Assembly (NCBI RefSeq): GCF_058153355.1 | Contig: NZ_CM177019.1 | Length of the DNA: 64,000 nucleotides | Strand: one strand, 5' to 3' | Part shown: one piece after another, positions 3,029-51,211 of the stretch | Layout: the number at the start of each line of letters is the position of its first letter | How positions within the stretch are numbered: position 1 is the first letter of the stretch | Translations under genes and position numbers: made by a program | Notes under the pieces: generated by a model | What the model was told of the DNA's origin: nothing | Database searches by the model: none | What the model saw: only the letters and a program-made list of their open reading frames with translations

Positions 3029-4454
3029 TAATGCCGATCAGTTAAGGATCAGTTGACCGATCCAGTGGCTGTGTAAGAATCCGGAAACGCTCACTTGTTT
3101 CCGGATTTTTTTATGCACATTGGACAGGCTCTTGATCTGGTATCCCGTTACGATTCTCTGCGTAACCCACTGACTTCTCTGGGGGATTACCTCGACCCCG
3201 AACTCATCTCTCGTTGCCTTGCCGAATCAGGTACTGTAACGCTACGCAAGCGCCGTCTTCCCCTCGAAATGATGGTCTGGTGTATTGTTGGCATGGCGCT
3301 TGAGCGTAAAGAACCTCTTCACCAGATTGTGAATCGCCTGGACATCATGCTGCCGGGCAATCGCCCCTTCGTTGCCCCCAGTGCCGTTATTCAGGCCCGC
3401 CAGCGCCTGGGAAGTGAGGCTGTCCGCCGCGTGTTCACGAAAACAGCGCAGCTCTGGCATAACGCCACGCCGCATCCGCACTGGTGCGGCCTGACCCTGC
3501 TGGCCATCGATGGTGTGTTCTGGCGCACACCGGATACACCAGAGAACGATGCAGCCTTCCCCCGCCAGACACATGCCGGGAACCCGGCGCTCTACCCGCA
3601 GGTCAAAATGGTCTGCCAGATGGAACTGACCAGCCATCTGCTGACGGCTGCAGCCTTCGGCACGATGAAGAACAGCGAAAATGAGCTTGCTGAGCAACTT
3701 ATAGAACAAACCGGCGATAACACTCTGACGTTAATGGATAAAGGTTATTACTCACTGGGACTGTTAAATGCCTGGAGCCTGGCGGGAGAACACCGCCACT
3801 GGATGATACCTCTCAGAAAGGGAGCGCAATATGAAGAGATCAGAAAACTGGGTAAAGGCGATCATCTGGTGAAGCTGAAAACCAGCCCGCAGGCACGAAA
3901 AAAGTGGCCGGGACTGGGAAATGAAGTGACAGCCCGCCTGCTGACCGTGACGCGCAAAGGAAAAGTCTGCCATCTGCTGACGTCGATGACGGACGCCATG
4001 CGCTTCCCCGGAGGAGAAATGGCGGATCTGTACAGTCATCGCTGGGAAATCGAACTGGGATACAGGGAGATAAAACAGACGATGCAACTGAGCAGGCTGA
4101 CGCTGAGAAGTAAAAAGCCGGAGCTTGTGGAGCAAGAGCTGTGGGGTGTCTTACTGGCTTATAATCTGGTGAGATATCAGATGATTAAAATGGCGGAACA
4201 TCTGAAAGGTTACTGGCCGAATCAACTGAGTTTCTCAGAATCATGCGGAATGGTGATGAGAATGCTGATGACATTGCAGGGCGCTTCACCGGGACGTATA
4301 CCGGAGCTGATGCGCGATCTTGCAAGTATGGGACAACTTGTGAAATTACCGACAAGAAGGGAAAGGGCCTTCCCGAGAGTGGTAAAGGAGAGGCCCTGGA
4401 AATACCCCACAGCCCCGAAAAAGAGCCAGTCAGTTGCTTAACTGACTGGCATTA
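3029..4454 (+). mobile_element. IS4 insertion sequence, 1426 bp, complete
   Basis: 18-bp imperfect terminal inverted repeats TAATGCCGATCAGTTAAG (3029-3046) and CTTAACTGACTGGCATTA (4437-4454); single transposase ORF; 13-bp direct repeats at both ends; length matches IS4. Confidence 0.9.
3113..4441 (+). CDS. insG: IS4 transposase (DDE family)
   Basis: ORF 3095-4441; start at [16 protein letters not shown] gives 442 aa. Recognised as the IS4 transposase. Confidence 0.85.
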
Positions 4455-23994: not shown

Positions 23995-24412
23995 CCGGAA
24001 AGCGGTTCACAGATCTCGCTTCGAACCAGGCAGGCCTATTGACGCTGTTGTTTTTTCAACCTAAAGTAAAGGAACAAGGGTAAGGGAGGATTTCTCCCCC
24101 CTCTGAATTGGTTGTTAGTAAGTCGGGAAACTTAACAGTAACAACACAATCAGTATGATGACGAACTTCATCATAACCCTTTCCTTATACAAGGCCCCTT
24201 CCTCGGGAGGGGCTTTCCCGTTTCAGCCCCTTGCTGACTCCCCGATTGTTGATGAGCGCCAGACCCCGCGCAATGCTTTCTCTTATGCAGTTTTCTCTTC
24301 CCCGAGTCGGCTCGCAAAACGCTGTAACAACCTGATCATTTGTACTTTTTAGCGGAACACAGATATAAAAAATCCCCGACTTTTTGGGCCAGGGATGTTC
24401 ATGGTTGAAAAT

Positions 24413-26074
24413 TTATTCTATGTTTTCTGCTACGGGAGTTGTTGAGGTTAAGGGTGAAGTCAATGCCGCTAGCGAGCCGCCTGAAACACCAATTTCATTG
24501 AGCAAGGAGTCAATCAGCGGTGCCTGTGTGCGGTAAGAAAGCGCGGCTGATAACGCTTGTTCCGCCAGATTTCCTCCACCAACGCTACCTGATATTGCAT
24601 CCCCTGCGGTACCACCACGGTTCAGACCATCGACCTGAATAATCTTAATACCGTCGATAGACTTCATTGGTTCCACAGATTTCTCAATTACTGCAGGGAG
24701 CGCCTGCAACAATGCCAGTTTGAATTTAAGGCTGGTTTGCTCGTCAGAAAGTACGTTGATAGCATCGTTCAGCGCACGTTGCGCTTCTGCTTCCGCCAGG
24801 CCTTTTTTACGCGTAGCTTCGGCTAACTCAACGATCGCCGCCGCCTGCATCTCTGCGGCTTCTTTTTCTGCTTTCGCCCGCACGGTCAGTTCAACCGCTT
24901 TGGTTTCTGCATCCTGCGCGGCAGCGATTAGGGCAACTTGTTTAGCACGATCGGCTTCTGCGGTCTGGCGAGTGGTTTCTACGTTTTGCTGGGCGCTTAC
25001 CGCTTCTGCAAGTGCAAGGTTGGCACGCGCTTCCGCTTGTGACTGCTGTTCCGATTTGGCGGCAATAGCGATCGATTTCGTCTGGTTGGCGATTTCGGTG
25101 ACCTGCTGCTGTTCGATCTCTTTAATGCGAACTTCACGTTCAGCTTCAACTTTTCTGGAACGGACGGCCTGTTCGCGGTCGATTTCCGTTTCCTGAATCT
25201 GTCGTTCAGCCAGAATTCGCGTCTGCTCTGCTTCCCGACGACGCTCGGCCTCAAAAGCCGCAATTTTCGCATTCTGCTCAGCGGTACGGGTTTTAACCTG
25301 CTGCTCCTGCTCAAGCGTCATAAACGCTTCTTGCTGTTCAATCTCCAGCTTCCGCGAAAGCTCATCACGGTTTTTCTCACGCACCGCAACTTCTACATCC
25401 TGTTCAACTTCGTTACGTTCGCGACGACGGCGCTCCGTCTCCTGCGTCAGCTTGGTTAAACCTTCGGCGTCAAAGGCGTTGTTAGGATTGAAATGTTCTT
25501 TCGACGTCTGGTTAAAGTTGGTAAGTGAAACGCTTTCCAGTTCCAGGCCGTTTTTCGACAGATCTTCAGCAACGGTATTTTGTACGCCCTGCACGAAGTT
25601 CTCGCGGGTATCCTGTAACTCATGCATGGTCATTTGTGCAGCTGTTGCACGGAGGGCATCGACAAATTTATCTTCAACCAACATACGTAAGTCTTCAGGC
25701 GACAGGGTGCGTTGCCCCAGCGTCTGGGCGGCGGTGGCAATACCTTCCACTGACGGTTTTACCCGCACAAAGAAAGCGACAACGACATCGACGCGCATAC
25801 GATCTTTCGTAATCAGGCTATCAATGGTTGAGCGGCTGACTTCCAGCTTCAGAGTATTCATATTGATGGGGATTATTTCATGAAAGATCGGCATCACGAT
25901 TGCGCCACCGCTCATTACCACTTTTTGCCCACCTAAACCAGTACGAACAAAAGCTTGCTCTGCCGAAGCGCGACGATAGAGCCTGGCGAAAATAATTCCA
26001 ATAATAAACAGAATGCATACGGCAATAATTGCGGTAAACATCCAGGAGGGCACAGAATTAACAATATCATCCAT
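24413..26074 (-). CDS. yqiK: Flotillin-like SPFH/band-7 membrane protein
   Basis: 553 aa; N-terminal transmembrane helix, SPFH core, long charged coiled-coil stretch. Confidence 0.85.
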   Translation of the reverse strand: MDDIVNSVPSWMFTAIIAVCILFIIGIIFARLYRRASAEQAFVRTGLGGQKVVMSGGAIVMPIFHEIIPINMNTLKLEVSRSTIDSLITKDRMRVDVVVAFFVRVKPSVEGIATAAQTLGQRTLSPEDLRMLVEDKFVDALRATAAQMTMHELQDTRENFVQGVQNTVAEDLSKNGLELESVSLTNFNQTSKEHFNPNNAFDAEGLTKLTQETERRRRERNEVEQDVEVAVREKNRDELSRKLEIEQQEAFMTLEQEQQVKTRTAEQNAKIAAFEAERRREAEQTRILAERQIQETEIDREQAVRSRKVEAEREVRIKEIEQQQVTEIANQTKSIAIAAKSEQQSQAEARANLALAEAVSAQQNVETTRQTAEADRAKQVALIAAAQDAETKAVELTVRAKAEKEAAEMQAAAIVELAEATRKKGLAEAEAQRALNDAINVLSDEQTSLKFKLALLQALPAVIEKSVEPMKSIDGIKIIQVDGLNRGGTAGDAISGSVGGGNLAEQALSAALSYRTQAPLIDSLLNEIGVSGGSLAALTSPLTSTTPVAENIE

Positions 26075-26100
26075 TATTAAATTTCCTTTTGATTAATAAA

Positions 26101-26730
26101 TTACAGTATTTGGGGCCAGGGGTTTTTTTCCGCCAAATATCGCGTTGCAGAAAGTCGGCAAATAATTAATACTTTGTCTCCTTTAGTGAAAGTTTTTTCT
26201 TCTTCAGGTTCCAGTAGTAAATAATGTATTTGGCCAAATTGATCGGTGAGTTTTCCTTCACAGGGGTTACCTGAAGTGGCCTGATGTCCGGTAATTAATG
26301 CCATGCAGCCAATATAATCGTCTTCTGTAATAGCAGTGCTATGATCTCGTGGTAACCAGGGCGCAATTACTTTACCGGTATAATGCACTGCAATAATCGT
26401 TAGCAGTAAACTGACAGGAACCACAAACAGATTTGTGAGTGGTGATTGCCAGACCATGATGCAGACCTGCTGTAGCAGGATGCCAATAAGGCCAAAAAAA
26501 CCAGCATGTAAGCAGAGAACGACGAGAGCTGGCAATCTTCCAAAATTGAGATAATGAAGTGCCTGGCTAATATGACCTGTGGTTATGGAATCATAATGGT
26601 CAAGATGTGCATCAAGAGCACCGGAGAGCATGTGACCGCAGATAAGTGCAAAAATTTCTAAAAGGCCGATCAAAAGTACAAAAGAAATAGCGAAAAGATA
26701 AGGGGTGTTATAGTCAGCGAATAAAATCAT
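26101..26730 (-). CDS. yqiJ: NfeD-like inner-membrane protein, partner of the flotillin
   Basis: 209-aa polytopic membrane protein with C-terminal OB-fold-like segment; immediately upstream of yqiK on the same strand. Confidence 0.8.
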
Positions 26731-26999
26731 ATGTCACTCCAATGTCCATTTAGTGACGCAATATTTATTTTGCGATAATTTCCTTGCTTACATTTATCTT
26801 TGTTAATAATAACACATGTTAGAGATGTTCTGAAAGAGAAAGTCTTTTAATGTTGTTTTTTTATTTTTCACTAAAAAGTGTGATCGGGAACAATATATTT
26901 ACGCACGTTATGTTTAAAGGCACTACACTGATTGGGGAATACTGAAATCAGAAAAAGCATATGGCCTTAAAAGGTATGCGATAACCGGAGGATGTGCTT

Positions 27000-27200
27000 A
27001 TGGATCATAGTCTTAATTCTTTAAATAACTTCGATTTCCTGGCGCGTAGTTTTGCCAGAATGCACGCAGAAGGTCGCCCGGTCGATATTCTGGCCGTTAC
27101 TGGTAACATGGATGAAGAACATAGAACCTGGTTTTGCGCACGTTATGCCTGGTATTGCCAACAGATGATGCAAACCAGAGAACTGGAATTAGAACATTGA
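27000..27200 (+). CDS. glgS: Sigma-S-dependent surface-composition / glycogen-associated regulator GlgS
   Basis: 66 aa from [57 protein letters not shown]... Confidence 0.9.
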
Positions 27201-27206
27201 TATTAC

Positions 27207-27227
27207 GGGCCGTCTGGCCCGTTTTTG
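27207..27227 (+). terminator. Rho-independent terminator after glgS, in a 34-bp convergent gap before ubiK
   Basis: GGGCCGTCTGGCCC hairpin followed by GTTTTTG. Confidence 0.7.
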
Positions 27228-27234
27228 TGGTGCT

Positions 27235-27534
27235 TTATTCTGCTTTATCAACCGGCGGGATAGCCGGAGGAGATTGAAGTTCTGCTACCGGATTATTGCG
27301 CGCTTCCAGTTCGCTGATGCGTTGTTCCAGTAACGCCAGTTTTTCACGAGTCCGTAACAGGACTTGCGTCTGAACGTCGAATTCTTCGCGGCTTACCAGA
27401 TCGAGACGCGTCAACTGCGCTTGTAGGGTTTGGCGGATTTTTTTCTCCACATCTTCCCCGAACTCCCTGATTCCTTTAGGCATTGATTCGTGAACCTGGC
27501 GAGCGATTTGCTCAATTTTTTTCGGGTCAATCAT
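27235..27534 (-). CDS. ubiK: Ubiquinone biosynthesis accessory factor UbiK (BMFP family)
   Basis: About 99 aa from [55 protein letters not shown]... Confidence 0.85.
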
Positions 27535-38934: not shown

Positions 38935-41076
38935 TCAAAATTCCATTTTCACCGTGAATTGCACTTCACGAGGATCGCCAATCTGGTTGCCCAGATTATT
39001 TGTGGCGATGGAAGAGGTGTAATACGTTTTATCAAACAGGTTTTTGACGTTTAATTGCAGTGTGACCGGATACTGCAATTTCATTTTGTATGCGGCGAAG
39101 GCATCGGCAACAAAATAGCCTGGCAGATAATAGTCAGCCCCATTGGTTGCCGAACGACGGCTTACACCATGTCCACCACCGCCAAACGTCAGTGTGTTAT
39201 TGCCTGGCATGTTATGAATATCATAGGTCAGGAATAGCGAACCGGTATGACGAGGAACATTCGGCAATGGTTTCCCTGCATAATCAGGATCCTCCAGAAC
39301 CTTAGCATCGGTATAGCCGTAGCTGGCAATGATATTAATGTTTTCAGTTAATGCTCCCGCAAGGTCGACTTCTACCCCTCTTGAACGAACACGGCCTGCC
39401 GTTTTGGCAATGGTTTCATCACCAACACTTTCGGTATACAACACATTACGTTTATGGATATCAAACAGCGCAATATCTGCGGTGATACCATCGAATAGCT
39501 CGAATTTTGCCCCGACTTCGTAAGCATTAGATGATTCTGGTGGCAGATCGCCAATGTAGCTGGCAATTGACGATTGCGGCATAAATGTTTGCGAATAATT
39601 GGCAAATAAGGATACCGATGGCGTCAGTTTGTAGACCAATCCCAGTTTGGGAGTCCATTGTTCATCGCGGCTGTCAGTATTGACATTAAAAGGACGGCCT
39701 TTACCCGCATACTGCGTGTAATACTGATAGCGGAGCCCGGCGACGGCAATCCAGTTATCGGTCAGATAGAGTGCGTCCTGTGCATACGCTGAGTAGCTCT
39801 CCTGTTTGATCGTCTGATCACTGTCCGACGCCGAAACCGTTGTGCATTTGCTGGTAATACCATAAACGGGGTTGTAGATATTGAAATCTTTAGCTTTTTT
39901 ACAGCGAATCATATCTGTGCGCAGAAGATCATAATATTCATATGACACCCCACCCAGAATCTCATTATAGAATCCAGCAACATCAACATTCCCTTGCAGA
40001 TCCGCACGAGTAGCATGCATACGCTGGGTAGATCCTTGAGTTGCATCAACACGCCGTGTCAGCGTTCCTGTCGTTGCATCATACGCGGTAACGCGAGCTT
40101 GATTATCGCTGTATTTATCCTGGCTGTAGCTGTAATCAAAGCGCGCTGTCCACTGGCTATTGAGATGATATTCTGCGTTGAGTTGCGCCAGATCGGACTG
40201 ACCATCTGTAATATTAAACGGTTCGTCAAAACGTATTTTTCGATCAACGTTTACGGGCTGTTTCGTCGTAAGGTCGAAAATCGTTCCACGATCGAACGGC
40301 GTTTTATAATCCCGATGAGAATAGAGCATGGTTACTGTTGCATTATCACCAAACCAGGTGAGTGATGGAGCAATAAATGTACTGCGCTCTTTACCGAAGT
40401 TTCGCCAGTAATCTTCATCTTGCACTTCCCCAATAAGGCGATACGCCAGCTGAGTGCCTTCAATGGGACCTGTGATATCCAATTGCCCAGTGCCTCCGCC
40501 AAAACTGGAGGAAGTGGCTGAGACAGTACCATGGAATGTTTTTTCCGGGCGCTTTGTCACGACGTTAATCAGTCCGCCAGGATCGAGAATGCCATACAGC
40601 GTGGAGGCCGGACCTTTTAGCACTTCCACACGCTCTGTGGCGGCGTTGAAACTGCGAGGAAGTACAGTTCGCAGGCCGTTGGTCATGATGGAGCCATCCC
40701 GGTTAGCACCAAACCCACGACGTACAAAAGCATCCTGAGTCCCGCCTAATGTATTGGTCTGTACCACGTTACTGACGTTATAAAGTGCCTCATCCAGCGT
40801 CGTCGCATTCTGATTTTCCAGAACTTGATCGCTAACCGTATTGACCACCTGCGGGATATCCAGCATCGGCATATCGGTTAATGTCGCCGTGGAGGTGCTC
40901 AGAGGTTGATAACCATCGGTCGCCTCAGTTGCGGTATTTGCATCCGCTGTAACAGTGATTGTTTCGCCATCTTTGGTCGTTACAGTGTCGGTTGCATGAA
41001 TCATCGGTGCTGCAAAGAGCAGTGAAAAGAGCGCTCGACCTTTGAGTCCTGAGAATGAAGGTGTGAACATAGCCAT
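38935..41076 (-). CDS. TonB-dependent outer-membrane receptor, siderophore type
   Basis: 713 aa; N-terminal signal peptide, TonB-box-like ETITVTA, plug-domain motifs, beta-barrel with C-terminal aromatic residue (...VKMEF). Confidence 0.85.
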   Translation of the reverse strand: MAMFTPSFSGLKGRALFSLLFAAPMIHATDTVTTKDGETITVTADANTATEATDGYQPLSTSTATLTDMPMLDIPQVVNTVSDQVLENQNATTLDEALYNVSNVVQTNTLGGTQDAFVRRGFGANRDGSIMTNGLRTVLPRSFNAATERVEVLKGPASTLYGILDPGGLINVVTKRPEKTFHGTVSATSSSFGGGTGQLDITGPIEGTQLAYRLIGEVQDEDYWRNFGKERSTFIAPSLTWFGDNATVTMLYSHRDYKTPFDRGTIFDLTTKQPVNVDRKIRFDEPFNITDGQSDLAQLNAEYHLNSQWTARFDYSYSQDKYSDNQARVTAYDATTGTLTRRVDATQGSTQRMHATRADLQGNVDVAGFYNEILGGVSYEYYDLLRTDMIRCKKAKDFNIYNPVYGITSKCTTVSASDSDQTIKQESYSAYAQDALYLTDNWIAVAGLRYQYYTQYAGKGRPFNVNTDSRDEQWTPKLGLVYKLTPSVSLFANYSQTFMPQSSIASYIGDLPPESSNAYEVGAKFELFDGITADIALFDIHKRNVLYTESVGDETIAKTAGRVRSRGVEVDLAGALTENINIIASYGYTDAKVLEDPDYAGKPLPNVPRHTGSLFLTYDIHNMPGNNTLTFGGGGHGVSRRSATNGADYYLPGYFVADAFAAYKMKLQYPVTLQLNVKNLFDKTYYTSSIATNNLGNQIGDPREVQFTVKMEF

Positions 41077-41176
41077 TTAGTCTGTTATCCCAAAAACTCG
41101 CGGATTGTCGCGAGTGAAAATTGTTTCTTATTGCTCACTAAGCACTATCCGTTTGTTATTTCGCCATCGGATATGT

Positions 41177-41195
41177 AATTGAGAATCATTCAATC
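41177..41195. promoter_or_regulatory. Candidate Fur box in the divergent control region of the island
   Basis: AATTGAGAATCATTCAATC; the core TGAGAATCATTCA matches the Fur consensus TGATAATCATTAT at 11 of 13 positions. Lies in a 373-bp AT-rich region between the receptor gene and the ABC operon. Confidence 0.45.
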
Positions 41196-41449
41196 ACGCG
41201 GTAATGTAGTAGTAAATGAGAAATAACAAAAAATTGCTACATGTGTTTTTATGAAAGGTTTATACAATTTAATTGTTTTTAATTTATTGATATTTAATGT
41301 TTTTATTTGTATGTGCAAAAATATTTTACCTGTTATTTACCTTGTTTTTGTGTGGCTTTTAACTGCTTGACTACTACATTTTGTGGCGTCAAACTCTCAA
41401 AGGAGAATGAGTTTTATTTTTGTTTGTCTTTGATTAAGTTGGCGTACAC

Positions 41450-42259
41450 GTGGCACATAACGCAAAAGGGCAGGGGCTGATCCTCGACAATGTTTCTGCC
41501 GGGTATCACAAGAAAATCATTGTTGATGGTGTTTCTTTCTCCGTTCCCACAGAAAAAATGACCGTTCTGGTTGGGGCAAACGGCTGTGGAAAGTCGACGC
41601 TGCTCAGCACCATTGCTCGTATCTTGCAACCCATGGGCGGTTCGATATTGCTTGATGGCAACGCGATTCACGAGCAACCAACGAAAGCGTTATCCCGTAG
41701 ACTTGGGATCTTGCCGCAGTCGCCATTATTGCCGGAGGGCTTAACCGTTTATGAACTGGTGTCGCGTGGGCGTTTTCCCTGGCAGAATTTCATTCGTCAA
41801 TGGAGCGATGCCGATGAGCTGGCGGTAGAAGAGGCCCTGAAATTAACGGGTACGCAGGAGTTTGCACATTTACCTGTTGAAAAACTCTCTGGTGGGCAGC
41901 GCCAGCGTTGCTGGATTGCGATGGTGTTGGCGCAAAAGACGCCTTATATCCTGCTGGATGAACCCACAACATGGCTTGATTTACGTTATCAGGTTGAAAT
42001 TCTTGAGTTATTACATGATTTAACGCGTCATCACGGGCGTACAGTCGTCGTGGTGTTGCATGATCTGAATTTTGCCGTCAATTATGGCGATACGTTGATA
42101 TTTTTACGCCAGGGGAAAGTGGTGCGTGTGTTGAATGAGGGGGAGCATTGCACGCCTGAGCTGGTAAAAGCGGTCTTTGACGTTGATGTTCACGCATCAA
42201 TAAATCCTCTGACGGGAAAGCCGTTCTTCATGCCGTTTCGTGGTGTAGAAAAAGTATGA
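41450..42259 (+). CDS. ABC transporter ATP-binding protein, FepC/FhuC/FecE-like
   Basis: 269 aa; Walker A GANGCGKST, signature LSGGQRQR, Walker B ILLDEPT, H-loop; apparent GTG start. Confidence 0.85.
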   Translation: MAHNAKGQGLILDNVSAGYHKKIIVDGVSFSVPTEKMTVLVGANGCGKSTLLSTIARILQPMGGSILLDGNAIHEQPTKALSRRLGILPQSPLLPEGLTVYELVSRGRFPWQNFIRQWSDADELAVEEALKLTGTQEFAHLPVEKLSGGQRQRCWIAMVLAQKTPYILLDEPTTWLDLRYQVEILELLHDLTRHHGRTVVVVLHDLNFAVNYGDTLIFLRQGKVVRVLNEGEHCTPELVKAVFDVDVHASINPLTGKPFFMPFRGVEKV

Positions 42260-43239
42260 TGCGCACAGGGCTGGTTACTGTAATTTTCCTCGCCTTACTG
42301 CTGGTGGGATGCGTGGTATATCCAGGGATTGGTGCCCGATTTATTGCACCACAAACGGTGTTGCAGGCATTTCTTCATTTTGATCCGCAAAACTTCGATC
42401 ACAACGTAATTGTAAGACTCCGTTTGCCGCGTTTAGCGGCAGCATTGCTTACCGGTGCTTCTCTTGGTGTTGCTGGTGCTTTGTTGCAGGCTGTCATTCG
42501 TAACCCATTGGGGGAGCCACATATTTTAGGCTTAAATGCCGGAGCCGCTCTTGCTGTCGTTGCCGCCAGTGCGCTTGGACTGGCCTTTCCGATTGGACGC
42601 CCACTGCTGGCATCTACGGGGGGCGCGTTATTGTTCCTGTTGATATTGCTGCTTTCCTCCGCAGGGCGTTCAGGGTTAACGCCAATGAAAGTTACTTTAT
42701 GCGGCGTGGCGCTATCGGCGTTCGTGTCCTCAATAACGGCTGCAATCCTGATTCTTGACGAACAAACACTGCTGGCGATGCGGACATGGCTAGCAGGTGA
42801 TTTAGCGGGGCAGGATTGGGCGACGCTGGGTACGTCCGCCTGGTTTTCTCTGGGGGGATTTGTGTTAGCCCTTTACCTTGCACCCTCCCTTAACATGTTG
42901 GCACTGGGCGATCGCATGGCGCAGGGGCTGGGCGTCTCTGTATTCCGCACGCGAACATTCACCCTGCTTGCGATCGCGTTGCTCTGTGGCGCAGCCGTAT
43001 CGATTGCTGGCCCCATTGGTTTTGTCGGCCTGCTAGTACCGCAGATTGTCCGGCGTCTGGTATCAGCGGATCTGTGCGTTCTGCTCCCTCTTTCAGCTTG
43101 TGTCGGCGCACTTTTGTTATTACTGGCAGATATTATTGCCCGTACGCTTTTCACGCCCCATGAGTTAGCGACCGGTGTCATGACGGCGTTAGTTGGTGCG
43201 CCTGTTTTTGTCATTATGGCGACGAGGATGTTCAAATGA
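42256..43239 (+). CDS. ABC transporter permease, FecCD family (iron-siderophore/B12 type)
   Basis: 327-aa polytopic membrane protein; start overlaps the ATPase stop (ATGA). Confidence 0.85.
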   Translation: MMRTGLVTVIFLALLLVGCVVYPGIGARFIAPQTVLQAFLHFDPQNFDHNVIVRLRLPRLAAALLTGASLGVAGALLQAVIRNPLGEPHILGLNAGAALAVVAASALGLAFPIGRPLLASTGGALLFLLILLLSSAGRSGLTPMKVTLCGVALSAFVSSITAAILILDEQTLLAMRTWLAGDLAGQDWATLGTSAWFSLGGFVLALYLAPSLNMLALGDRMAQGLGVSVFRTRTFTLLAIALLCGAAVSIAGPIGFVGLLVPQIVRRLVSADLCVLLPLSACVGALLLLLADIIARTLFTPHELATGVMTALVGAPVFVIMATRMFK

Positions 43240-44285
43240 GTCGGATAATGAACGTCGGGCTACGCCCACTACGTGTTGGTAAGTTTTCGACACTGGTACG
43301 CCCTAAAAATCTGCTGTTGCTTGGTGGGCTGTTCCTGCTTGCGGTTGGAATACTGATATTCGGTCTGATGCAGGGTTCTTTCTCTGTTCCGGCATCGGAA
43401 GTAGGACGAGCGTTGTTTGCTCCAGAAAACGTAAGCACAGACGCACGTTATATTGTGCAGGATATTCGCTTGCCGAGAGTCATCATGGCATTGCTATGCG
43501 GGGCCATGTTAGGTATGGCAGGGGCCGCAATGCAATCCATTGCACGTAACGGCCTTGCCGATCCTGGTTTAATCGGCGTCAAAGAAGGATGTAGCGTGGC
43601 TGTGCTGTGGCTGATTTTCCAGTTTCCAATGCTGGGAATGTTCTGGCGTCCAGTGGCTGGTCTTGCTGGCGGCCTGTTGGTGGCTTTAATCGTGATTTTT
43701 TGTGCGCGCGATATTTCCCGCCCGCGATTTGTTCTGATTGGTATTGGTGTTTCCTGGTTTTTCGCCGCCGGTATCGGTGTATTTATGACCACTGCAGATG
43801 TTCGAGATGTACAAACTGCATTGATGTGGTTATCGGGAAGCCTGCATGCAGCTAACTGGATGTTAGTCGGTATTTCAGCCTGTTGGATGTTGCCAGCCGC
43901 TCTTTTATTGCTGTTCACCGCCAGGAAGGCGGATATCGCTCTGCTTGGTCATCAGGTGGCAACCGGGTTAGGCGTGAATAGTTCTCGCCTGGCGTTGTTA
44001 CGTGTCGCCGCACCCATAATCCTGACAGCCGTCTGCGTTTCGTGTGTTGGTAACATAGGTTTTGTCGGATTGATAGCACCCCATATATCACGTTTTATTC
44101 TACGTGGCGGGCAGACGACATTACTGCTGGGGAGCGCGGTATCGGGGGCGTTGTTAGTTATTCTGGCGGATAGCATTGGTCGTTTGGCTTTTTTGCCTTT
44201 GCAACTGCCTGCCGGAATCATTATCTCACTGATTGGTGGACCATTTTTTTTGCTACTGCTCTGGCAGCGCAGGAACAGTTTTTAA
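43236..44285 (+). CDS. ABC transporter permease, FecCD family, second subunit
   Basis: 349-aa polytopic membrane protein; start overlaps the upstream stop (ATGA). Confidence 0.85.
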   Translation: MSRIMNVGLRPLRVGKFSTLVRPKNLLLLGGLFLLAVGILIFGLMQGSFSVPASEVGRALFAPENVSTDARYIVQDIRLPRVIMALLCGAMLGMAGAAMQSIARNGLADPGLIGVKEGCSVAVLWLIFQFPMLGMFWRPVAGLAGGLLVALIVIFCARDISRPRFVLIGIGVSWFFAAGIGVFMTTADVRDVQTALMWLSGSLHAANWMLVGISACWMLPAALLLLFTARKADIALLGHQVATGLGVNSSRLALLRVAAPIILTAVCVSCVGNIGFVGLIAPHISRFILRGGQTTLLLGSAVSGALLVILADSIGRLAFLPLQLPAGIIISLIGGPFFLLLLWQRRNSF

Positions 44286-44295
44286 CGGGAGTTAT

Positions 44296-45243
44296 ATGCG
44301 TTTATTTTTTTCTCTGCTGATACTGTTGTCATTTTTTTCCCGTGCAACAGAACCTGTTCAGGTATTTACTGATGATTTAGGGCGCAAAGTCACTGTTCCT
44401 GCTCATCCAAAGAGAATTGTCTCTTTACACGATCTTGATATCACTATTCCTCTGATTGAGCTCGGTGTACCTCCTGTCGCCAGCCACGGGCGAACTCGGC
44501 CTGACGGTAGCCATTTCATTCGATCTGGCGCGTTATTGACAGGTGTCGACTTTGATAATTCATCGATCGCCTTTATTGGTACCGCTGATATTGATATTGA
44601 AGCGATTGTGGCGGCAAAGCCTGACCTGATCATCACAGAACCGACCCGTAATACGCCCATTGAACAACTTGAAAAAATTGCGCCCACGGTGAGCATTGAT
44701 CATCTCAAAGGGGGCGCGCCAGAAATCTATCGCAAGCTGGCAGAACTTACAGGAACGCAGTCGCAGCTGGCGATACTTGAACGCCGCTATCAGGCACAAA
44801 TCAATGCGCTGAAGGCGACGCTGGACAGCCAAAAAATAACGGTATCGGTGATTCAGGCAAACCAGGGAAAAATTAATGTGATGCATAGCTATCATTCGCT
44901 GGGGCGGGTATTACGCGATGCTGGTTTTCGTTTTCCGCCGCTGATTGAGAGCATTCCTGAAGGTGGGCGAATGGATGTGAGCGCGGAGCGTTTACCTGAA
45001 CTGGATGCCGATTTTGTTTTTGCAACCTGGCGCGGTGACACCGGTGGTAAACCTCAGGATGAGCTGGCAGCAATGGAAAAAGTCATGCCGGGATGGTGTC
45101 AGTTTCTGACTGCCTGTCGTTCCGGGCGTTATGTGCTGATTTCTCGTGAAGAGGCAATTTCTAACTCCTTTGCATCTCTGGGGCTGATGGCTGCGCAGAT
45201 ACAATCACAAATTGCAGGGCGACCTCTACCGGAGGCTAAATGA
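44296..45243 (+). CDS. Periplasmic substrate-binding protein, class III (siderophore/heme/B12-type)
   Basis: 315 aa from MRLFFSLLILLSFFSRATEP (signal peptide); typical size and architecture; GGGA ribosome-binding site upstream of the ATG at 44296. Confidence 0.8.
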   Translation: MRLFFSLLILLSFFSRATEPVQVFTDDLGRKVTVPAHPKRIVSLHDLDITIPLIELGVPPVASHGRTRPDGSHFIRSGALLTGVDFDNSSIAFIGTADIDIEAIVAAKPDLIITEPTRNTPIEQLEKIAPTVSIDHLKGGAPEIYRKLAELTGTQSQLAILERRYQAQINALKATLDSQKITVSVIQANQGKINVMHSYHSLGRVLRDAGFRFPPLIESIPEGGRMDVSAERLPELDADFVFATWRGDTGGKPQDELAAMEKVMPGWCQFLTACRSGRYVLISREEAISNSFASLGLMAAQIQSQIAGRPLPEAK

Positions 45244-46127
45244 TCCAGAAAGATAAAGCGCGGGTTGATATTTTTGGTGAGCGTTTTCGCACTCGCGCGA
45301 GTCAGTTAACGCCTGGGTTAAGAGCTGTCGCCAGCTACATTAATGAGCATCGTGAAGTGGTACTCGAGCAAACGGCGATGGAAATTGCGGCCACGTTGAA
45401 CACTTCCGATGCCACAGTTATCAGGGCTATACAGGCCCTGGGGTTTGCCGGGCTGCGTGATCTGAAACGCACTCTGGAACAGTGGCTTGGTCCAGCCCTT
45501 AGTTCCAGCGAAAAGATGTCTACGACGGTGAGTAACTTGACGAGCGATGTTAACACCGCAATCGACTTTGTTCTTGAAGGGCATTTGTATACCTGTAATG
45601 TCCTGTCAGAGCCTGAAAACCGCCACGCGCTTGCGCAAGCTGTAGCGTTGTTGGTGCAGGCACGGCAAGTCGCAATTTTTGGCATTGGCGCTTCGGGTAT
45701 TCTGGCGGACTATACCGCACGACTATTCAACCGCATAGGTTTGCCTGCCACGGCACTAAACCGTACGGGTATTGGCCTTGCCGAGCAACTGATCGCGCTT
45801 CAACGTGGCGATGTTCTGATCATGATGGCGCAAAAATCTGCGCACCGGGAAGGGGTGACGACGCTTCGTGAGGCGAGGCGGCTGGGGATCCCTGTTATTT
45901 TGCTGACAAACGCGCTGGATTCACGTTTTAGCAAAGACGCCAGTATCGTGATTCATGTTCCGCGCGGGGATGAAAAAGGGAAAACGCCGCTACATGGTAC
46001 GGTATTGTTGTGTCTGGAAATGATTGTCTGGTCGGTAGCTTCCGCAGTGCCGCAGCGTGCGGTTAAAACCATTAAGCGAATTAACGATTTCCATCGAGGA
46101 CTGAAAACGGGAAGAAAGAATGGCTAA
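45240..46127 (+). CDS. RpiR-family transcriptional regulator (N-terminal HTH_6 + C-terminal SIS sugar-phosphate-binding domain)
   Basis: 295 aa; HTH region (...QTAMEIAATLNTSDATVIRAIQALGFAGLRDLK) followed by a SIS-like fold (VAIFGIGASGILADYTARLFNRIG...); start overlaps the stop of the binding-protein gene. Confidence 0.75.
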   Translation: MIQKDKARVDIFGERFRTRASQLTPGLRAVASYINEHREVVLEQTAMEIAATLNTSDATVIRAIQALGFAGLRDLKRTLEQWLGPALSSSEKMSTTVSNLTSDVNTAIDFVLEGHLYTCNVLSEPENRHALAQAVALLVQARQVAIFGIGASGILADYTARLFNRIGLPATALNRTGIGLAEQLIALQRGDVLIMMAQKSAHREGVTTLREARRLGIPVILLTNALDSRFSKDASIVIHVPRGDEKGKTPLHGTVLLCLEMIVWSVASAVPQRAVKTIKRINDFHRGLKTGRKNG

Positions 46128-50874: not shown

Positions 50875-51211
50875 TGAAGAATCTTTACCGGAGTGTGAGC
50901 CAAATCACTCGCTATCAGTTTAAGTTAACGATGCCACAGGCGTATTGTTGTCCGCTCAGACTCTGACGGCACAGGATTTTGTCCTTCCACACAGAAACCG
51001 CCATTGGCGGTTTTCCGCTGCATAATCCGCAGGATTATGTCTACAGCAAAGAGTTGTATATCAAGGCACATTGATGCCTTTATCGCCGTCGGAGCACGTC
51101 CGGCGGCGCTATTCACGCTGATCTCCTGTGACTCGACGCGGCAGATAATGTAGTATCTCCGGCAATATTGCCCCTTTGAAGGCTGGCGAATAAGTTGAGG
51201 AATCAGAATTA

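Follow-up and report, generated by a model that had tools for sequence, protein, structure and literature searches.

What does the yqiJ-yqiK pair make at the bacterial membrane, and is the very long charged segment of its flotillin a peculiarity of the allele studied here or a property of the family? The question was raised by a sequence-only reading of a stretch of 64,000 nucleotides (hereafter the window), which described a flotillin with an unusually long coiled coil of charged heptads, next to an NfeD-like gene, and considered the function of the system to be poorly defined. This last point agrees with the literature, where the physiological role is described in the same terms (PMC10434171, PMC2636767). 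The yqiJ-yqiK operon and its co-evolution have been described previously (PMC2636767, PMC11237479). In laboratory K-12, YqiK is barely expressed and was detected neither as a chromosomal GFP fusion nor in detergent-resistant membranes. Growth, biofilm formation and stress responses of deletion strains, a quadruple SPFH mutant among them, revealed no effect that could be traced to yqiK (PMC2636767 among the sources).

The elements of the locus, in the direction of transcription, are the following.

26806..26834, minus strand: candidate sigma-70 promoter some 75 nt before yqiJ (TTCAGA-17-TATTAT; extended -10 TG)
26101..26730, minus strand: yqiJ coding sequence, an ORF of 209 aa for an NfeD-like inner-membrane protein (Pfam; RefSeq name of the orthologue)
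26075..26100, minus strand: yqiJ-yqiK spacer of 26 nt, with the yqiK Shine-Dalgarno AAGGA at 26084-26088
24413..26074, minus strand: yqiK coding sequence, an ORF of 553 aa for a bacterial flotillin of the SPFH2 family (Pfam Band_7 and Flot)
24362..24396, minus strand: intrinsic-terminator-like hairpin and T-run, 17 nt past the yqiK stop, with a 9-bp stem followed by TTTTTTATATC

Both ORFs are on the minus strand and the spacer measures exactly 26 nt, as initially read. Their naming as a yqiJ-yqiK, NfeD-like/flotillin pair is likewise upheld by concordant Pfam, RefSeq, fold and profile matches, and of 5426 complete E. coli genomes, 5424 carry the orthologues under the RefSeq names yqiJ and yqiK, the latter as a "flotillin family protein". 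Each gene is preceded by a separate good Shine-Dalgarno sequence. With a 26-nt gap, no terminator-like site found by the terminator scan of the spacer and a terminator after yqiK, the arrangement permits co-transcription. The intergenic region that holds the candidate yqiJ promoter is AT-rich (32.7% GC); since the scan upstream of yqiJ returned no more promoter-like sites than expected from shuffled sequence, with a single extended -10 candidate, this promoter is weak and is not taken as evidence. The gene order glgS-yqiJ-yqiK-ibs/sib-hldE-glnE matches that of K-12, with one sib/ibs module downstream of yqiK in the window versus two in K-12. The locus is thus the chromosomal Escherichia yqiJ-yqiK operon, a two-gene NfeD2/SPFH2 module. 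A reading as a defence system was dropped, as neither YqiJ nor YqiK matched the PADLOC-DB protein models at E<=0.01.

Comparison with the K-12 pair (b3050-b3051; Hinderhofer et al., 2009, PMC2636767) revealed the same genes, position, lengths and 26-nt spacer, and the difference amounts to allelic divergence only. YqiK is 98.4% identical over an equal length of 553 aa, with nine substitutions and no indels; no amino-acid change falls in the 199 N-terminal residues that include the transmembrane and SPFH regions and only two fall in the helical region, the substitutions clustering in the Gly-rich loop and the C-terminal tail. YqiJ has the same length and 92.4% identity, with 16 substitutions including L75H in TM2. 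No DNA repeats were found in yqiK by Tandem Repeats Finder or by a direct-repeat search. Close identity to K-12 YqiK with neither length nor repeat variation, which had been named beforehand as refuting any special status, is therefore what was observed. Nor is the protein unusually long, being below the family median (573 aa among 121 representatives, 77% of which exceed 553 aa). As lengths equal those of K-12 and the locus is near-universal in E. coli, where 5391 of the 5426 complete genomes carry it intact and at full length, it is ordinary for a member of this family to have such a long charged helix. Length variants do exist: a rare 406-aa YqiK of E. coli, found on 8 contigs, lacks 146 residues of the predicted wall through an in-frame deletion, and some E. 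coli strains have shortened yqiJ products (about 117-120 aa).

Purifying selection acts on both genes (yqiK dN/dS of 0.035 at a dS of 0.27; yqiJ dN/dS of 0.15). At the DNA level, yqiJK is 93-94% identical to K-12, compared to 96-97% for most of the window, and identity to most E. coli genomes is also low (90-95%). The whole window is, however, diverged from K-12 (dS about 0.15), and yqiJK is found near the top of the range, where ygiD, cpdA, glgS and ygiQ are similar; in one genome (H1), identity is 99.0% between ribB and yqiK but 97.5% in hldE-glnE. A special allele was consequently rejected, the low yqiJK identity being taken as lineage divergence plus local recombination and not as functional novelty. 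Composition is skewed as well, with a GC content of 41.6% in yqiJ and 32.7% upstream versus 51.6% for the window, and a GC3 of 35% in yqiJ versus about 61% in hldE and glnE. Overall, this is an ordinary core E. coli operon, already known as an NfeD2/SPFH2 pair.

YqiK divides into four parts.

25979..26047, minus strand: YqiK N-terminal transmembrane anchor, aa 10-32 (Kyte-Doolittle 19-residue score of 2.98; AlphaFold2 helix)
25508..25978, minus strand: YqiK SPFH/Band-7 domain, aa 33-189 (AlphaFold2 pLDDT 96-98)
24752..25477, minus strand: YqiK charged helical region, aa 200-441, a predicted cage-wall helix with A/E alternation
24485..24859, minus strand: YqiK Flot domain, aa 406-530, containing a Gly-rich low-confidence loop at aa 474-499

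The SPFH core announced by the first reading corresponds to a Pfam Band_7 match (PF01145, 1.9e-18, aa 39-191), and the Flot domain was recognized over the full model 1-124 (PF15975, 1.3e-40, 138.8 bits for a cut-off of 27). The basic residues RLYRR after the transmembrane helix would agree with a C-terminus in the cytoplasm, an orientation taken from the literature. Single-sequence phmmer searches of YqiK and YqiJ against PDB sequences gave no match at E<=1e-3 or 1e-2, and we thus used family-profile and fold searches. When the AlphaFold2 monomer model (mean pLDDT 79.8) was compared to the PDB with Foldseek, the best matches were the human flotillin cages 9BQ2 and 9L3G (E about 3e-15, about 500 aligned columns), followed by the cages of prohibitin, HflK/C, stomatin, erlin and QmcA-YbbJ; each of the best structural neighbours is an SPFH protein that forms cages. 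Similarly, a profile of 109 YqiK homologues matched flotillin-1 at 2.5e-15 through the SPFH and C-terminal regions, the Flot region aligning with the C-terminal part of flotillin-1. YqiK is a protein with flotillin architecture over its entire length.

The charged region has the composition that the first reading gave it, about 250 residues rich in E/R/K/Q/A: residues 200-450 consist for 63% of these five amino acids, with no proline and two glycines, and both peptide strings quoted as examples were located in the 553-aa ORF. The heptads, on the contrary, were not confirmed. Fourier analysis showed no 3.5-residue periodicity, with hydrophobic, small and charged residues all at or below the shuffle mean at this period, and no signal emerged in the heptad band when 109 family members were analysed (median z -0.5). 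A heptad coiled coil was rejected on these grounds and on the occupancy of the a/d positions by hydrophobic residues (0.30-0.42 versus 0.38 overall). The acidic residues are periodic at 2.22 residues, in antiphase (179 degrees) to Ala/Gly, and this period is the alias of about 1.8 residues, i.e., of two opposite helix faces. The alternation of acidic residues and Ala/Gly on opposite faces reaches a z of 7.1 in YqiK and exceeds 2 in 98% of the 109 homologues. Fu and MacKinnon (PMC11260169) described the flotillin wall in just these terms, without heptads, with an A/G-E-A/G-E pattern and with charges inside and outside. The YqiK helix carries the pattern that marks the wall of the solved human flotillin structure, a single-layer helical barrel. 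Handedness was not deduced from the peak position, which differs between acidic residues (2.22, about 3.64 residues per turn) and Ala/Gly (2.29). AlphaFold2 places helices at 200-329 and 352-441, separated by a low-confidence stretch (330-351), and because of this break the wall may be either one 242-residue helix or a helical hairpin.

The human flotillin-1/flotillin-2 cage (9BQ2, 9L3G; PMC11260169), the best PDB match by both fold and profile, is thus the closest structural reference. At a sequence identity of about 20%, both combine an SPFH domain with a long charged helix, in which A and E alternate and heptads are absent, and with a Flot domain at the C-terminus. YqiK differs by a true N-terminal transmembrane helix; flotillins attach to membranes by acylation or by a hairpin. 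Moreover, YqiK would presumably form a homo-oligomer, compared to a hetero-44-mer in humans, and its modelled helical span of about 242 residues exceeds the 186 residues of the flotillin wall (PMC11260169). YqiK also has an NfeD-like partner, whereas eukaryotes lack one (PMC11222466).

This partner, YqiJ, comprises two regions.

26356..26715, minus strand: YqiJ membrane region, aa 6-125, with three predicted transmembrane helices at 6-30, 68-94 and 100-125
26125..26316, minus strand: YqiJ C-terminal OB-fold beta-barrel, about aa 139-202 (Pfam YqiJ_OB; six strands in AlphaFold2)

The helices correspond to Kyte-Doolittle peaks, with an AlphaFold2 pLDDT of about 90 in TM2 and TM3, and Pfam identified YqiJ_N (7.8e-16) and YqiJ_OB (7.7e-15). 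In the AlphaFold2 model the barrel occupies aa 143-202. The three top Foldseek matches of the OB domain in the PDB were all NfeD C-terminal domains, 3WWV, 2K14 (YuaF) and 2K5H (E-values of 1e-3 to 3e-3; TM score of 0.78 and rmsd of 2.3 for 3WWV). The C-terminal domain of YqiJ, as modelled, carries an NfeD-type OB fold, and Pfam assigns it to the sister family YqiJ_OB (PF07290) and not to the canonical NfeD PF01957. Flotillin homologues that share only 48% and 38% identity with YqiK are still immediately preceded by a YqiJ_N/YqiJ_OB gene; no yqiJ-like gene was found beside one giant 897-aa homologue. The 209-aa length of YqiJ is kept across Enterobacteriaceae down to about 50% identity.

Two bacterial pairs provide further points of comparison. 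B. subtilis FloT-NfeD2 (YuaG-YuaF) exhibits the same architecture and the same operon logic, YqiK has been grouped with YuaG in SPFH2 (PMC2636767), and the soluble domain of YuaF (2K14) is the second-best structural match to the YqiJ OB domain. YqiK scored only 88.2 bits against the FloT equivalog NCBIfam NF058507 (cut-off 700), with about 35 more YqiK residues aligned across the same model span, and by this model it is a homologue but not an orthologue of FloT. The second pair, E. coli QmcA-YbbJ (8Z5G; Tan et al., 2024), is a paralogous SPFH and NfeD pair that faces the cytoplasm and was solved as a cage of 26 heterodimers (cited in PMC13086221); it is the direct precedent for the placement of an NfeD protein with its SPFH partner. 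Unlike YqiK, QmcA is stomatin-type (SPFH1), has a far shorter helix and lacks a Flot domain, and the gene order is reversed, qmcA being upstream of ybbJ and yqiJ upstream of yqiK.

By analogy with these systems, we consider it likely that YqiK forms a membrane-anchored cytoplasmic cage, with YqiJ inside or beneath it, that fences a patch of membrane. The N-terminal helix of YqiK would anchor it in the inner membrane, leaving the remainder in the cytoplasm, and many copies would line up next to one another and close into a cage shaped like a dome or a cone, in which the SPFH domains would rest on the membrane and the Flot domain would shut the roof. The charged helices of about 240 residues would assemble into a single-layer parallel helical barrel. 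In this barrel, salt bridges would probably join neighbouring subunits on the faces that look inwards and outwards, while Ala/Gly contacts would hold the lateral faces together. Within or at the membrane patch that the cage would fence off, YqiJ would sit through its three transmembrane helices and contact YqiK with its OB domain, and it may stabilise the oligomer or recruit clients, as does NfeD for QmcA and S. aureus FloA. Physiologically, the pair would probably sequester or stabilise certain membrane proteins or lipids during a specific stress. A narrower claim, that YqiK-type flotillins build a single-layer, probably right-handed barrel cage with a wall about 30% longer than in humans (about 242 versus 186 residues), we regard as evenly balanced.

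Some observations run counter to the cage model. The S. aureus FloA-NfeD complex was reported as an open "clamp" oligomer (PMC11222466), in opposition to a closed cage. The Foldseek E-values of the YqiJ OB domain are only about 1e-3 and its Pfam family is YqiJ_OB, not NfeD. To these are added the AlphaFold2 break at 330-351, the low expression of YqiK and the lack of a yqiK deletion phenotype.

The FloA complex also inspires another reading, which we hold to be unlikely, in which YqiK and YqiJ would form an open clamp-like holdase, an ATP-independent oligomer stabilising unfolded or insoluble membrane proteins under stress. Ukleja et al. (2024, PMC11222466) reported a clamp-shaped flotillin oligomer whose "tentacles" are bound by NfeD, favouring the capture of unfolded clients, and the gene arrangement is the same, with an NfeD-like gene beside the flotillin gene. 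However, FloA is a member of another SPFH subfamily, made up of shorter proteins, and is not of the YqiK/FloT type, whereas the full-length YqiK fold best matches the closed 44-mer flotillin cage and its helical region bears the barrel-wall periodicity. Furthermore, the oxidative and aminoglycoside sensitivity of the SPFH quadruple mutant was traced only to hflKC, not to yqiK. Clamp and closed cage could be two states of one machine.

It seems quite improbable that the pair acts instead on membrane fluidity or envelope stress, altering lipid order or aiding PspA-type repair without enclosing specific protein clients, although one distant YqiK homologue adjoins a TelA gene. B. subtilis flotillins are linked to membrane fluidity. 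Overexpression of YqiK led to enlarged cells with inclusions thought to be lipid (unpublished data in PMC2636767), but osmotic shock, alkaline shock and other general stresses do not induce the protein (PMC2636767), and the neighbours of yqiJK in the window are glgS, sib/ibs and hldE, with no psp, telA or lipid-metabolism gene beside it. Finally, the very low native expression, the absence of a known deletion phenotype, the AT-richness of yqiJ and its upstream region, the low GC3 of yqiJ, and the truncated yqiJ products and 406-aa YqiK of some strains might suggest a remnant of horizontal acquisition that is silent and no longer functions in E. coli. This is highly improbable in view of the strong purifying selection on yqiK, the 5391 of 5426 genomes with intact, full-length genes and the conservation of the 209-aa YqiJ across Enterobacteriaceae.

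We therefore retain the membrane-anchored cage of YqiK with its YqiJ partner as the preferred reading. In bacterial flotillins, the "coiled coil" is not to be read as heptads, since its residues repeat as they do in the helical-barrel wall of flotillin. The reading of a longer wall would apply to YqiK generally and not to the window alone; if it is true, helix length would set the height of the cage, the 406-aa alleles would build a much shorter one, and these natural alleles would offer a ready-made test of wall length versus compartment size.

The pair consists of two adjacent genes on the same strand:

26101-26730, minus strand: yqiJ, open reading frame of 209 aa
24413-26074, minus strand: yqiK, open reading frame of 553 aa

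Exactly 26 nt separate the yqiJ stop from the yqiK start, as the sequence-only reading had stated, and both peptide strings that it quoted were found in these frames. The arrangement is operon-like: a Shine-Dalgarno motif (AAGGA) and no detectable terminator are present within the spacer, a GGAG motif precedes the yqiJ frame, and a 9-bp hairpin followed by a T-run is located 17 nt past the end of yqiK. According to Pfam, YqiK carries a Band_7/SPFH domain (residues 39-191) and a C-terminal flotillin domain, Flot (residues 406-530, 1.3e-40), whereas YqiJ comprises YqiJ_N and YqiJ_OB. Residues 200-450 of YqiK are 63% E, R, K, Q or A and contain no proline, so that the earlier description of an SPFH core with an E/R/K/Q/A-rich region stands. 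Pfam domains, RefSeq gene names and the neighbourhood in K-12, the reference E. coli strain, make the identity of the pair as yqiJ-yqiK close to certain.

This is a known, ordinary core operon. The dyad has been described before (PMC2636767; PMC10434171), also as a widespread abbreviated operon (PMC11237479), and megablast retrieved the 2.5-kb locus from 5424 of 5426 complete E. coli genomes, in which RefSeq names yqiJ an "OB-fold-containing protein" and yqiK a "flotillin family protein". The gene order glgS-yqiJ-yqiK-ibs/sib-hldE-glnE is common to the window and K-12. YqiK and its K-12 counterpart are equally long and align without indels; nine substitutions separate them (98.4% identity), of which the helical region has two and the Gly-rich loop and C-terminal tail the remainder, the transmembrane (TM) and SPFH parts being unchanged. 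No tandem or direct DNA repeats were found in yqiK. Close identity to K-12 YqiK, with neither length nor repeat variation, was the outcome by which the sequence-only reading proposed to dismiss the helix as a peculiarity, and it is the outcome obtained. YqiJ is also of equal length in K-12, with 16 substitutions (92.4% identity). It has a His at position 75 (codon 26506-26508), inside predicted TM helix 2, a residue present in 0 of 37 aligned homologues; the exact YqiJ sequence, His75 included, occurs on 519 contigs carrying an E. coli or Escherichia label, and the exact YqiK sequence was absent from the protein collection searched.

YqiJ retains its 209 aa across Enterobacteriaceae, down to about 50% identity, and a YqiJ_N/YqiJ_OB gene lies directly upstream, on the same strand, of flotillin homologues 48% and 38% identical to YqiK; a giant homologue of 897 aa has no such adjoining gene. 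Outside the window, an E. coli YqiK allele of 406 aa (several NCBI accessions, 8 contigs) shows an in-frame deletion of residues 289-434, that is 146 aa of the helical wall, with its junction at a short EAE(Q/A) microhomology. Truncated YqiJ products of about 117-120 aa are numerous in E. coli, one being found on 573 contigs and named E. coli O145:H28.

The window differs from K-12 in other respects. Between yqiK and hldE, it encodes a single sib/ibs type I toxin-antitoxin module:

24039-24189, plus strand: SIB RNA (Rfam SIB_RNA, 144.7 bits)
24115-24174, minus strand: Ibs frame of 19 aa, MMKFVIILIVLLLLSFPTY, antisense to the SIB RNA

K-12 and the other inspected E. coli loci with ibs called harbor two copies in tandem units of about 375 bp (ibsD/sibD and ibsE/sibE), and the window therefore differs from them in the copy number of a repeated module. 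At 27200-27240, glgS directly abuts ubiK, and the ygiL-yqiGHI fimbrial operon and IS2 insertion that separate them in K-12 are missing; the same arrangement is seen in MFDS1022581, the closest E. coli relative at this locus. A 7.3-kb island absent from K-12 (38935-46127, between parE and ygiN) encodes a TonB-dependent siderophore receptor of 713 aa, a regulator of the RpiR/MurR family and an ABC transporter for Fe-siderophores composed of an ATPase, two permeases and a binding protein; it may be similar to "fit", an iron-uptake locus of extraintestinal E. coli. An IS4-family transposase frame (3095-4441, plus strand, 448 aa; NF033592, 9e-91) sits within a 1.4-kb insertion relative to K-12, beside mug and the tRNA-Ile region. 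Compared with K-12, the window lacks the toxin-antitoxin genes mqsR-mqsA around 50876-51004, together with most of ygiS, of which the final ~70 nt alone align.

The alleles themselves are divergent. With 5047 E. coli genome records the locus shares 90-95% identity, and with three at least 99%. In the adjacent glnE-hldE region, identity to all these records is 95-99% (best 97.9%, complete RefSeq E. coli genomes). The whole window is 96-97% identical to K-12 (dS about 0.15), which indicates a source lineage scarce among complete E. coli genomes, apparently a divergent one within Escherichia or E. coli. Against K-12, dS reaches 0.27 in yqiK and 0.51 in its last 112 codons, which places yqiJK near the top of the range in the window, with ygiD, cpdA, glgS and ygiQ comparable. 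Identity to MFDS1022581 is 99.0% from ribB to yqiK versus 97.5% in hldE-glnE, a step that suggests a recombination tract shared with the window. The functional reading is unchanged by this allelic divergence. Within 26101-26996, yqiJ has 41.6% GC and the intergenic region upstream of it 32.7%, compared with 51.6% for the window, and GC3 is 35% versus about 61% in hldE and glnE. Such AT-richness could be linked to an old horizontal acquisition or to H-NS silencing, and in this way to the reported low expression.

The helical region had been read as an unusually long coiled-coil of heptads, and neither term holds. Fourier analysis of YqiK residues 195-452 and 200-441 revealed no periodicity of 3.5 residues for hydrophobic, small or charged classes, and no heptad register with hydrophobic enrichment at a/d positions was found in this region, on which grounds a heptad coiled-coil is rejected; across 109 homologues, the heptad band has a median z of -0.5. 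Acidic residues of YqiK are periodic at 2.22 residues, a power attained at any frequency by 0.1% of shuffles, and Ala/Gly at 2.2-2.3 residues, with a phase difference of 179 degrees between the two. As a period of about 2.2 is an alias of about 1.8 residues, the same residue type occupies two opposite faces of an alpha-helix. This periodicity recurs in the 109 homologues (median z 6.8; z>2 in 98%), which are interrelated and not independent. In the human flotillin cage, parallel helices devoid of heptads build the wall as a right-handed barrel one layer thick, in which an A/G-E-A/G-E pattern prevails and inner and outer charged residues glue adjacent subunits (Fu and MacKinnon, PMC11260169); the YqiK helix is alike in its lack of heptads and its acidic/Ala-Gly alternation. 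As for length, HMMER, run exhaustively against 1.84 billion cluster representatives, yielded 3354 relatives. Among the 121 matches listed with 480 aa or more, the median length is 573 aa, 77% exceed the 553 aa of YqiK, and its 258-residue charged segment ranks at about the 72nd percentile. The longest homologue among the matches listed has 897 aa, and SPFH2 proteins of 800-1000 aa, termed "giant" and enlarged in their coiled-coil regions, had been noted before (Hinderhofer et al., PMC2636767).

AlphaFold2, run with a 109-sequence alignment (mean pLDDT 79.8), predicts for YqiK:

residues 10-32: TM helix
residues 33-189: SPFH domain (pLDDT 96-98)
residues 200-329: helix
residues 330-351: low-confidence stretch without Pro or Gly
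residues 352-441 and 444-466: helices
residues 474-499: disordered Gly-rich loop
after this loop: short C-terminal helices

The fold is of the flotillin type: the best PDB matches by Foldseek are the human flotillin cages 9BQ2 and 9L3G (E ~3e-15, ~500 aligned columns), followed by prohibitin, HflK/C, stomatin, erlin and the E. coli QmcA-YbbJ cage, and the family profile matches flotillin-1 (2.5e-15) through the SPFH and C-terminal regions. Orthology to FloT was rejected (88 bits for a cut-off of 700). The YqiJ model (pLDDT 79) shows three TM helices and a six-stranded barrel of the NfeD type, whose top three Foldseek matches in the PDB are NfeD C-terminal domains:

PH1510-C (3WWV), first match, TM 0.78
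YuaF (2K14), second match
MTH693 (2K5H), third match

One rival reading makes the pair an open clamp-type holdase, as proposed for S. aureus FloA-NfeD (PMC11222466), and another gives it a role in membrane fluidity or linked to PSP. Expression of YqiK in laboratory K-12 is very low and deleting it causes no clear phenotype (PMC10434171; PMC2636767), but both genes are under purifying selection (dN/dS 0.035 for yqiK and 0.15 for yqiJ), which speaks against a silent remnant. We somewhat favor a YqiK-YqiJ cage, by analogy with solved homologues. YqiK would oligomerise on the cytoplasmic side of the inner membrane into a cage that is anchored there, with residues 200-441 forming the wall as a parallel helical barrel and Flot the roof, and would thereby enclose a membrane patch. 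YqiJ would reside in or at this patch and touch YqiK through its OB domain, a contact that may stabilise cage assembly or recruit clients. The eukaryotic flotillin wall counts 186 residues (PMC11260169), compared to about 242 helical residues in YqiK, and this greater length is a trait of the whole bacterial subfamily, K-12 YqiK included.
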